Source: Escherichia coli O157:H7
GTDB taxonomy: Bacteria > Pseudomonadota > Gammaproteobacteria > Enterobacterales > Enterobacteriaceae
Assembly: GCF_013167455.1 (NCBI RefSeq)
Contig: NZ_CP038328.1
Length of the DNA: 64,000 bases
Reading direction: 5' to 3' (one strand)
In this document: positions 39,001-42,000 of the stretch, one piece after another
Layout: the number at the start of each line of letters is the position of its first letter
Position numbering within the stretch: the first letter of the stretch is position 1
Made by a program: the position numbers

Positions 39001-42000
39001 AATTTAGCCTGAAGCTCCTGACGCACCAGTTGCATAAAGGCTGGCTGAGGAGAGATCACCCCACCGCGCGGCTGAACCCCCAGCGGACGCGCACTCAACA
39101 TGTCATAGAGTTCTTGATCAATAATCTGTTGCTGTTGCAGCAGACGCAGTACCAGATTACGTCGCTCCAGCGCCAGTTTCGGGTTACGCCACGGGTTGTA
39201 GATGGACGCTCCTTTCACCATACCGACTAACAGCGCCTGCTGATCGAGGCTCAATTCTTCTACCGGGCGACCAAAGTAATACAAGCTCGCCAGCGGGAAG
39301 CCGCGGATTTCGTTGTCGCCGCTCTGACCGAGATACACCTCGTTCATATACAGCTCAAGAATACGGTCTTTGCTGTAACGCGCGTCCATGATCAGCGCCA
39401 TGTAGGCTTCATTCGCTTTACGCCAATAAGAGCGCTCGCTGGAGAGGAACAGGTTTTTCACCAGCTGTTGCGTCAGCGTACTCGCCCCCTGCACCGTGCG
39501 ACCTGCGGTCAGGTTTGCCAGCACCGCACGTCCGATGGAGTAGAGACTGATTCCATCATGCTCGTAGAAATGGCGGTCTTCTGTCGCCAGCAAAGTATCC
39601 ACCAGCAAATCCGGGAAACCACTGCGCGGCACAAACAAACGCTGCTCACCGTTTGGTGAGGAGATCATGGTGATCAGACGCGGATCAAGACGGAAGAAAC
39701 CGAACTGACGGTTGTTCTCCATATTGACGATGGTCGCCAGATGATCGCCATCAAAGGTCAGACGCGCGCGCACCTGCCCTTCTTTACTGTCCGGGAAATC
39801 AAACGGACGGCGAATCATCTCAATGCTGTTGGCCTGCACGGTAAATTCGCCAGGACGGGTCATTTTCGACACCTGACGATACTGTGTTGCCTCCAGCAGC
39901 TTCACCATCTCGTTCTTGCTGATGGTCATGTCTGGCTCAAGGTTGACCATTCGACCATAAACTGCCGCAGGCAGTTGCCAGACCTTGCCATCAATACGGC
40001 TACGAATTTTTTGATCGAGATAAACGCCGTAAATGGCGATCAGCACGGCAAAAACGATAGCCAGTTTTAACAGCAGCCATAGCCAGCCGCGTTTGCCACG
40101 AGGCTTACGCCCTTTGCCTTTGCCCTTACCTTTGCGCGGCATCGGTTCTTCATCCTCATAGTCATCATAATCGTCGTAATCATCGTCATCTTCGTAACGA
40201 CGACGGCTTACCTTTTGTTTGACCGGACGCGTCGGTTTCCCTTTGCGTCCAATTGGCTCGCGGTCATTCCCGGCCATGCTTTTTCTCCGCAATATTCAGG
40301 CGCAAAAGCCCGATTTTCTGTTCTTCTGTTACAAGACAGAAGAAGATATCTCTCAAAATTTGAGCTCGATCGGTCCCCTCTCCCTTAAGGGAGAGGGTTA
40401 GGGTGAGGGTGAACGTGCGCGCTGGTGCCCTCACCCCGGCCCTCTCCCACAGGGAGAGGGAGAAAACCAACCTTACGAATACTTTTTCGTCCGTCGCGTC
40501 GGTGCCGTGTTTGCCGGGTCGTCCGGCCAGACGTGTTTGGGATAACGCCCTTTCATCTCCTTTTGCACCTCACGATACGCCCCTTTCCAGAAGGCCCCCA
40601 AATCACGCGTGATTTGCAGCGGCCTTTGGGCGGGTGAAAGCAATTCCAGCACCAGCGGCACGCGCCCCTGGGCGATCGTCGGATTAGTGGCCTCACCAAA
40701 CATCTCCTGCATTCTCACCGCCAGCGCGGGCGGGTTATCTTCATGATAACGAATGGCGATCCGGCTTCCCGTCGGCACAGTGTAATGCGCAGGCAATTCA
40801 CTATCCAGACGTTGCTGCATTCCCCAATCAAGTAATCCGCGTAGTGCCTGATAAATGTCGAGTGATTTCAGGCCGCGTAGTGAATGTACACCGGCCATAT
40901 GTGGCAGCAGCCACGTTTCCAGCGTCGCCAACAAACTTTCATCATCAACCGCTGGCCAGTCATATTCTGGCAACCACTTTCCGGCGCATAACAAACGCAA
41001 GCGTAGCTGTTCCGCTTCCGCCGTCCAGTTGAGCACGCTTAAACCTTTATCACGGATGCCGTTAAGCATCGCCTGATGCAACTCGTCTTCTGACGGTTTC
41101 GCCAACGGCTGCACTTTCACCGTCAACTGACCGATTTGCAGCCGACGCCAGGCTTTCAGCGTACCTTGCGCGTCATCCCATTCCACGGTGTCAGATTGCT
41201 GCACCAGCTGCGGACAGCGTTGTACTAATTCATCAATATCGACCGGTAACGCCAGTAAAATCCGCGCATCCGGCGAGGCGCTGCCCTGCAATAATAACGG
41301 CGCGATCAACCATTCGTGGCGACTTAGCGCGTCGTCGGCATCAAGCATCGCCCCCATGCCGTTTGCCAGTTGATAGCGTCCATCTTGCCCACGGCGGCGA
41401 GCAATGCGATCGGCAAACGCCCCGGCAAGTAGCGGCGCGATAAGCGAACTGTCTGCCTCACCGCCGCGTACGTTTAAGCGTTTTAACAGTTGCTGACTAC
41501 GTTGCTGCCAGGCTGGTTGATTGCGCGAAAACGCCACGCCCAGGTCACTATTGCCCATCCGTGGCGGCTCTTCGAGAATGGCGGCAATTTTTGCCGCGGT
41601 AGCAGCTTCGTCGTCGCTCTTTGCGCTAACCAGCATTGCCGCTAAACGCGGATCGTTACCCAGCGCTGCCATTTTTTGCCCTTGCGCACTAAGCCGTTCA
41701 CCGTCCAGCGCCCCCAGCATTTGTAACAGACGTTTCGCGGCCAGTAGATTCACCGTTGGCGGTTGATCCAGCCAGCTCATCTGCGCCGGATCGCTGCATC
41801 CCCATTGCAGTAATTCCATCAGCAAACCGGAAAGATCGCTTTGTAAGATCTCCGGTTCACTTTGCGCGGTAGCGCGTTCTGCTTGTTCTTTGGCGATTAA
41901 ATGCAGGCAGATACCCGGCTCCAGACGCCCGGCGCGCCCGGCACGCTGCGTCATCGACGCCTGACTGATTCGCTGAGTAATCAACCGCGTAAGCCCTGTT

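Follow-up and report, generated by a model that had tools for sequence, protein, structure and literature searches.

Sequence context and conservation of the internal start codon in mrcB, the gene for PBP1b, of Escherichia coli O157:H7

A single mrcB mRNA of Escherichia coli O157:H7 very probably gives rise to two proteins, PBP1b-alpha from the annotated ATG and PBP1b-gamma from the ATG of codon 46, through the sequence context that an acidic block provides for the second start, with FtsA targeting of the alpha form. In E. coli, PBP1b is the main cell-wall synthase for repair and fortification, and it is a major target of β-lactams. The alpha and gamma isoforms and the Met46 start are already known and belong to textbook biology. 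Forty years after the isoforms were recognised, a functional explanation came from a 2026 study, in which alpha was found to be recruited to the division site through FtsA (PMC13423804). We computed the sequence features and their significance, the identity with K-12, the context in the RNA and the degree of conservation, while the existence of both products and the FtsA function are taken from the literature. Our additions are modest. They comprise a sequence-level rationale for initiation at codon 46 over the other ATGs, a survey of the taxa that retain or lack the second start, and attention to an invariant peptide at the C-terminus, a segment always removed in structural work.

Results

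Identity of the gene and comparison with K-12

We analyzed a window of 64,000 nucleotides of contig NZ_CP038328.1. The minus-strand reading frame runs from the annotated ATG at 40277 to a stop codon at 37745..37743 and encodes 844 amino acids. A mechanical ORF call opens further upstream, at TTG 40292. We place the start at 40277, since all orthologues share the same first ten residues and a GGAG lies 7 nt before this ATG. Within the N-terminal region, synonymous variability is lowest at codons 2-6 (Hn 0.12, gene mean 0.57).

The original prediction had named the gene mrcB, and this was borne out by the RefSeq label of an identical sequence, by four Pfam domains and by the hrpB and fhuA neighbours. 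A 551-nt probe spanning the hrpB-mrcB junction and the mrcB 5' end was 100% identical to E. coli O157:H7 strain PV15-279, in which the identical sequence carries the RefSeq label mrcB, 'bifunctional glycosyl transferase/transpeptidase'. The gene lies between hrpB upstream and fhuA downstream, an order that matches the K-12 chromosome. The Pfam matches comprise PBP1_TM (residues 1-79), UB2H (113-197), Transgly (209-379) and Transpeptidase (473-714), all above the curated cut-offs. Transgly (PF00912, E = 2.7e-56) and Transpeptidase (PF00905, E = 2.1e-24) occur in one chain, both above their gathering scores, and PBP1_TM (PF14812) is matched over the full length of its profile with 88.4 bits against a cut-off of 27.8. 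UB2H (PF14814, E = 1.7e-25) sits between the transmembrane helix and the glycosyltransferase (GT) domain, which tells PBP1b apart from PBP1a. The chains of solved PBP1b structures match residues 53-804 of the protein encoded here. Thus, 40277..37743 on the minus strand is the mrcB (ponB) gene of an O157:H7-type chromosome and encodes a class A PBP1b. The features of the gene are collected in Table 1.

Table 1 Features of the mrcB gene, with positions in the window.
Feature	Position	Strand	Basis or remark
mrcB (ponB) CDS, product PBP1b alpha	37743..40277	-	844 codons + stop; translation, RefSeq, Pfam
Shine-Dalgarno (SD) GGAG of the primary start	40285..40288	-	7 nt before ATG1; read from sequence
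N-pep, codons 1-14, alpha isoform only	40236..40277	-	conserved in 80 sequences; reported FtsA-binding
Acidic block, residues 28-45, net charge -13	40143..40196	-	imperfect 9/18-nt tandem repeat in DNA
SD-like GAGGA, from Glu41-Asp42 codons	40153..40157	-	10 nt before ATG46
ATG of Met46, gamma isoform start (799 aa)	40140..40142	-	SD core and least-structured mRNA stretch; Ribo-RET literature
Basic juxtamembrane block, residues 46-64, net charge +10	40086..40142	-	6-nt tandem repeat in DNA
Transmembrane anchor, ~residues 65-87, bounds approximate	40017..40085	-	hydrophobic run; within Pfam PBP1_TM
Q/P-rich linker, residues 801-827, including conserved GNPF, variable length	37797..37877	-	18/27 Q/P
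Conserved C-terminal motif, residues 830-844	37746..37790	-	invariant positions in 80 sequences

The gene is the O157:H7 allele, which differs from K-12 mrcB at 41 nucleotides over its whole length. The two proteins share 842 of 844 residues, the differences being D591E and V782I. Residues 1-66 and the first 203 nt of the gene are identical, and Met46, the domain order and the hrpB-mrcB-fhuA neighbourhood are all alike. The O157 allele therefore leaves the alpha/gamma picture unchanged, because it is identical to K-12 in the relevant region. None of the 41 differences in the 2535-nt gene falls within these first 203 nt (40075-40277), where an even spread would place about 3.3.

Charge blocks of the N-terminal tail

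Residues 1-64 fall into three charge blocks, a basic block at 1-27 (+8), an acidic block at 28-45 (-13) and a basic block at 46-64 (+10), after which the membrane anchor begins. All 17 residues at 28-44 are D, E or Y, and 16 of the 17 at 48-64 are K, R or G; the largest counts in any 17-residue window of the shuffled protein were 11 and 12, respectively (2000 shuffles). Both runs are far beyond chance. The acidic stretch followed by a K/G/R run, which the original prediction had read in the first 60 or so residues, was thus confirmed by translation and by the shuffles. The interval given for it, 40097-40277, amounts to 60 codons and one base, and the K/G/R run (residues 49-64) goes on for a further 11 nt, to 40086. 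Windows of 15 residues with an entropy below 2 bits are confined to the acidic block, the basic block and the C-terminal tail. At the DNA level, Tandem Repeats Finder (TRF) arrays cover 40150-40197 in the acidic block (period 9/18) and 40111-40135 in the basic block (period 6).

Both tails had also been described as the parts of PBP1b outside the catalytic domains. They are indeed non-catalytic, but so are the transmembrane helix and UB2H. Nor are the tails featureless low complexity: residues 1-14 are a conserved peptide for which FtsA binding has been reported, and an invariant motif closes the C-terminus.

Context of the internal start

Translation places the ATG at 40140-40142 at codon 46, in frame, as the original prediction had it, and published work supports its assignment as the start of the known shorter gamma isoform (PMC13423804; Ribo-RET, 10.1101/520783 and PMC11005335). 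We scored all 27 in-frame ATGs. An SD core (GGAG, GAGG or AGGA, 4-12 nt upstream) precedes only Met1, Met46 and Met740, and Met46 is the sole ATG of the 27 with both an SD-like GAGGA 10 nt upstream and the least-structured stretch of the mRNA. When the whole mRNA was folded in sliding 60-nt windows, the six least-structured of the 846 windows all fell within the acidic-block codons (CDS nt 79-154). The window around Met46 (-40..+20) has a minimum free energy of -6.4 kcal/mol against a gene mean of -15.5, and in its minimum-energy structure the entire upstream part and the ATG are unpaired. Its folding z-score against shuffled sequences is about 0, so the openness comes from composition, namely from the GAN and TAY codons that encode the D/E/Y block and are rich in purines and A/U. 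An SD spacing of 10-11 nt is rather long.

We infer that the codons of the acidic block are the ribosome landing site for the second start. Initiation at ATG1 (40277) would give PBP1b-alpha, with a 64-residue tail made of a basic segment bearing the conserved peptide, an acidic D/E/Y segment and a basic K/G/R segment; initiation at ATG46 (40142) would give PBP1b-gamma, which would keep the basic block alone. The GAN codons of the acidic block would have a dual effect, placing an SD-like GAGGA 10 nt upstream of ATG46 and forming the least-structured stretch of the mRNA, and the internal start would work because they supply both. According to the literature, the FtsA-binding peptide within the 45 alpha-specific residues brings PBP1b to the division site, where it fortifies the septum, and gamma, without this peptide, remains dispersed around the cell.

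Met740 (38058-38060), the other internal ATG with an SD-like core at 4-12 nt, also has a weakly structured context (-8.2 kcal/mol). A start there is probably meaningless, since the product would be a 105-residue C-terminal fragment without a signal sequence. A crude consensus scan of both strands of 39900-40700, which missed any primary mrcB promoter too, gave no promoter or terminator for a separate gamma transcript. An Rfam scan of 40050-40520 returned only sub-threshold, generic hairpin matches, all to the intergenic palindrome.

Published work on the two isoforms

Navarro et al. (Nat Microbiol 2026) describe ponB as having two start codons that yield alpha and gamma, gamma being initiated at the 46th codon, Met46 (PMC13423804). 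As cited there, the internal start has been described since the 1980s (Kato 1984, Broome-Smith 1985, Chalut 2001). Only the alpha form was both enriched at the division site and active there; FtsA binding was predicted for its N-terminal peptide, with in-vitro and cytological assays in support, and an R6E change abolished both recruitment and septal fortification (PMC13423804). The 1-60 peptide used in that study is identical to the one encoded here. Constructs that start at M46 served as the functional gamma isoform (PMC13423804). A specific role was assigned to alpha only (PMC13423804), and the literature that we searched showed no function specific to gamma as opposed to alpha.

Ribosome profiling points to the same start. 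In the Ribo-RET work of Meydan et al., mrcB was among three genes with previously characterised internal starts that were recovered (10.1101/520783). Initiating ribosomes at the mrcB internal site were reported for E. coli BW25113/BL21 (10.1101/520783) and for S. Typhimurium (PMC11005335), and Fijalkowski et al. found the same pair of proteoforms in Salmonella, with a 42-residue extension (PMC11005335). A literature search on tyrosine phosphorylation of the D/Y block gave nothing relevant, and we dropped the idea as unsupported.

We compared mrcB with other E. coli genes whose in-frame internal starts have been characterised. Like infB (IF2-alpha/beta) and clpB, which Ribo-RET detected together with mrcB (10.1101/520783), it produces two N-terminal proteoforms from one mRNA. 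Unlike in infB and clpB, the short form loses a disordered cytoplasmic targeting tail and not a folded domain, and the codons of acidic residues supply the SD and the open RNA. Navarro et al. liken PBP1b to the Gram-positive class A PBPs that bind GpsB, where a short disordered cytoplasmic tail likewise recruits the synthase to the division site (PMC13423804). There, the peptide is unrelated to that of PBP1b, and the partner is GpsB, whereas PBP1b has FtsA.

Conservation of the second start across Enterobacterales

A scan of species-representative genomes gave 79 usable Enterobacteriaceae loci, and the conservation counts below are given on 80 sequences. In all scanned loci the tail begins with the common first ten residues or with MAGDDREPIG and follows the order basic, acidic, basic, transmembrane. 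Residues M1, A2, G3, D5, R6, E7, P8, I9, R11 and K12 are invariant in the 80 sequences, in which R6, P8, I9, G10 and R11 are invariant or nearly so. Sequences from Erwinia, Pantoea, Serratia and Yersinia and those of Sodalis type retain the invariant residues as well.

The alignment of the N-terminal region, the check proposed for the original prediction, showed a start codon at the Met46 position in 75 of the 80 sequences. The aligned codon is ATG in 68, GTG in seven and another codon in five, these losses being CGT in two Kluyvera, GCG in Pseudescherichia vulneris and a relative, and ACG in Kosakonia S29. In the Salmonella loci the Met stands at position 43, which matches the 42-residue extension reported in PMC11005335. 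An SD core at 4-12 nt accompanies the start codon in 73 of these 75 sequences (97%), against 48.7 (65%) expected from synonymous resampling with each gene's own codon usage, and its offset differs from genus to genus. The species are not independent, so the persistence of the start codon and of the SD core is suggestive only.

Synonymous constraint was not evident around Met46, where the normalised entropy was 0.64-0.76 against a gene mean of 0.57. Codon choice there is thus not unusually constrained across species, and the RNA carries no independent signature of selection. We also considered whether the exclusive use of GTG for Val at this position (7/7; 10/10 cases overall) speaks for retention of a start codon. 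This was rejected as non-significant, given that 12 of the 47 all-Val columns in the same seven species are all GTG; GTG is the sole Val codon one mutation from ATG.

Beyond the Enterobacteriaceae, fragments from Erwinia, Pantoea-like, Serratia, Yersinia, Sodalis-like and Arsenophonus genomes keep the three-block order, with Met or a GTG-coded Val at the boundary between the acidic and basic blocks. In three Pantoea-like genomes the boundary Val is GTG and GAGGAG lies upstream. One Klebsiella-like PBP1b N-terminus from a Logan assembly (protein P0063) carried systematic R>C, P>L/F, A>V and T>I substitutions. These are the signature of C-to-T converted reads (bisulfite or deamination), and we therefore regard it as a database artefact and not a variant.

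Variation within E. coli

Over the first 198 nt of mrcB, 5089 of 5424 matching E. coli genomes are at least 99% identical to the sequence analyzed here, and 5293 of 5426 complete genomes contain an exact 40-mer that covers the SD, ATG46 and the codons that follow. Shorter tail alleles occur in about 6% of complete E. coli genomes. In the three that we inspected, an Asp codon, a KG unit or both are missing, always in frame, and each allele retains the Met46 codon. These length alleles are consistent with slippage in the 6-nt (40111-40135) and 9-nt (40150-40197) arrays.

The C-terminal tail ends in an invariant motif

The C-terminus (37743-37860) had been described as Q/P-rich. This holds for residues 801-827, where 18 of 27 are Q or P against a shuffle maximum of 13, but not for the last 15 residues, which instead form an invariant motif that the original prediction had missed. 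V833, G835, W836, I837, M840, F841 and G842 are invariant in 80/80 sequences, the penultimate position is S or G, and a terminal N follows. The GNPF at 805-808 is conserved too in this set, in which the length of the tail varies from 40 to 51 residues. In fragments from Hafnia, Erwinia and Pantoea-like genomes the terminal motif is identical, whereas the Q-rich linker is unrecognisably different.

The hydrophobic residues of the motif fall at i, i+1, i+4 and i+5, a spacing that suggests one face of a short amphipathic helix. The constructs of all solved PBP1b structures begin at residue 53-58 and end at 804, so that neither tail is seen in them and the motif is absent. The searchable literature gave no function for the motif, which is not proof of absence. 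An AlphaFold2 model built from the 80-sequence alignment had a mean pLDDT of 36.5 and says nothing on disorder or docking of the tails; the alignment is too shallow, since all sequences are at least ~80% identical.

Discussion

The production of alpha and gamma by two initiation events on one mRNA has to be weighed against an origin of gamma by proteolytic trimming of alpha. The beta form of PBP1b is a degradation product of alpha, made by OmpT cleavage, and the basic K/R run of the tail would suit cleavage of this type. Nothing computed here favours such an origin for gamma, and the SD core and unstructured context single out ATG46. Moreover, Ribo-RET finds initiating ribosomes at the internal site in two species (10.1101/520783, PMC11005335), and constructs starting at M46 have been used as functional gamma (PMC13423804). 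We consider proteolysis extremely improbable. It is also very unlikely that the tails are low-complexity spacers that are prone to slippage and have no function. In the DNA, both blocks consist of imperfect tandem repeats, alleles differing by one unit segregate in E. coli at the frequency given above, and length varies between species. However, the sampled alleles and length differences amount to whole codons, the order of the three blocks holds throughout the Enterobacterales, there is almost no variation in residues 1-14 or in the last 15, and a single change, R6E, abolishes septal recruitment (PMC13423804).

A start at codon 46 that is real but incidental is a more serious alternative, albeit an unlikely one. 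Here, a GAN-coded acidic block would be SD-rich and unstructured in any case, so that a Met directly behind it would initiate; Met46 would be kept for reasons of the alpha tail as a protein, and gamma would be a tolerated by-product without a function selected in its own right. From the amino-acid sequence alone, the chance of an SD core is about 65%, synonymous constraint around Met46 shows no excess, the start codon has been lost in five lineages, the retention of GTG is non-significant, and a specific role has been given to alpha only (PMC13423804). Against this, the SD core is found at the higher frequency of 97% and shifts between genera as if maintained by turnover. A boundary start codon also persists across several Enterobacterales families despite diverged flanks, which is suggestive only, the species being non-independent. 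Two initiation events, with FtsA targeting of alpha, remain the reading we favour. We tentatively extend it to a joint reading of both tails, which is possible but, taken as a whole, rather doubtful. In the N-terminal tail, the acidic D/E/Y block would be dual-purpose, a spacer in the protein whose GAN codons are kept as an unstructured, SD-bearing landing site for gamma, an arrangement ancestral to several Enterobacterales families. At the other end, the periplasmic tail, supposed to be disordered, would be a Q/P-rich tether that presents the invariant, probably amphipathic peptide for docking on a partner or on the membrane.

Elements between hrpB and mrcB

Finally, we examined the region between hrpB and mrcB. 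Directly after the hrpB stop codon lies a GC-rich nested palindrome of about 102 nt (~40361-40470), with arms CCCTCTCCC/GGGAGAGGG and GGGTGAGGG/CCCTCACCC. O157 and K-12 both have the element, whereas an O18:H1 strain lacks it. Of 5425 E. coli genomes, only 3539 cover the full probe, and further copies are found at other sites in the genomes. The element matched no Rfam family; it may resemble the E. coli 'Box C' repeat. Closer to the gene (40321-40344), TTCTTCTGT/ACAGAAGAA form a perfect inverted repeat of 9 bp around a 6-nt loop, 44-67 nt ahead of the mrcB start. The repeat is a candidate regulatory or operator-like site. In the stretch around it, O157, K-12 and the O18:H1 strain are nearly identical, and one difference lies in the loop.
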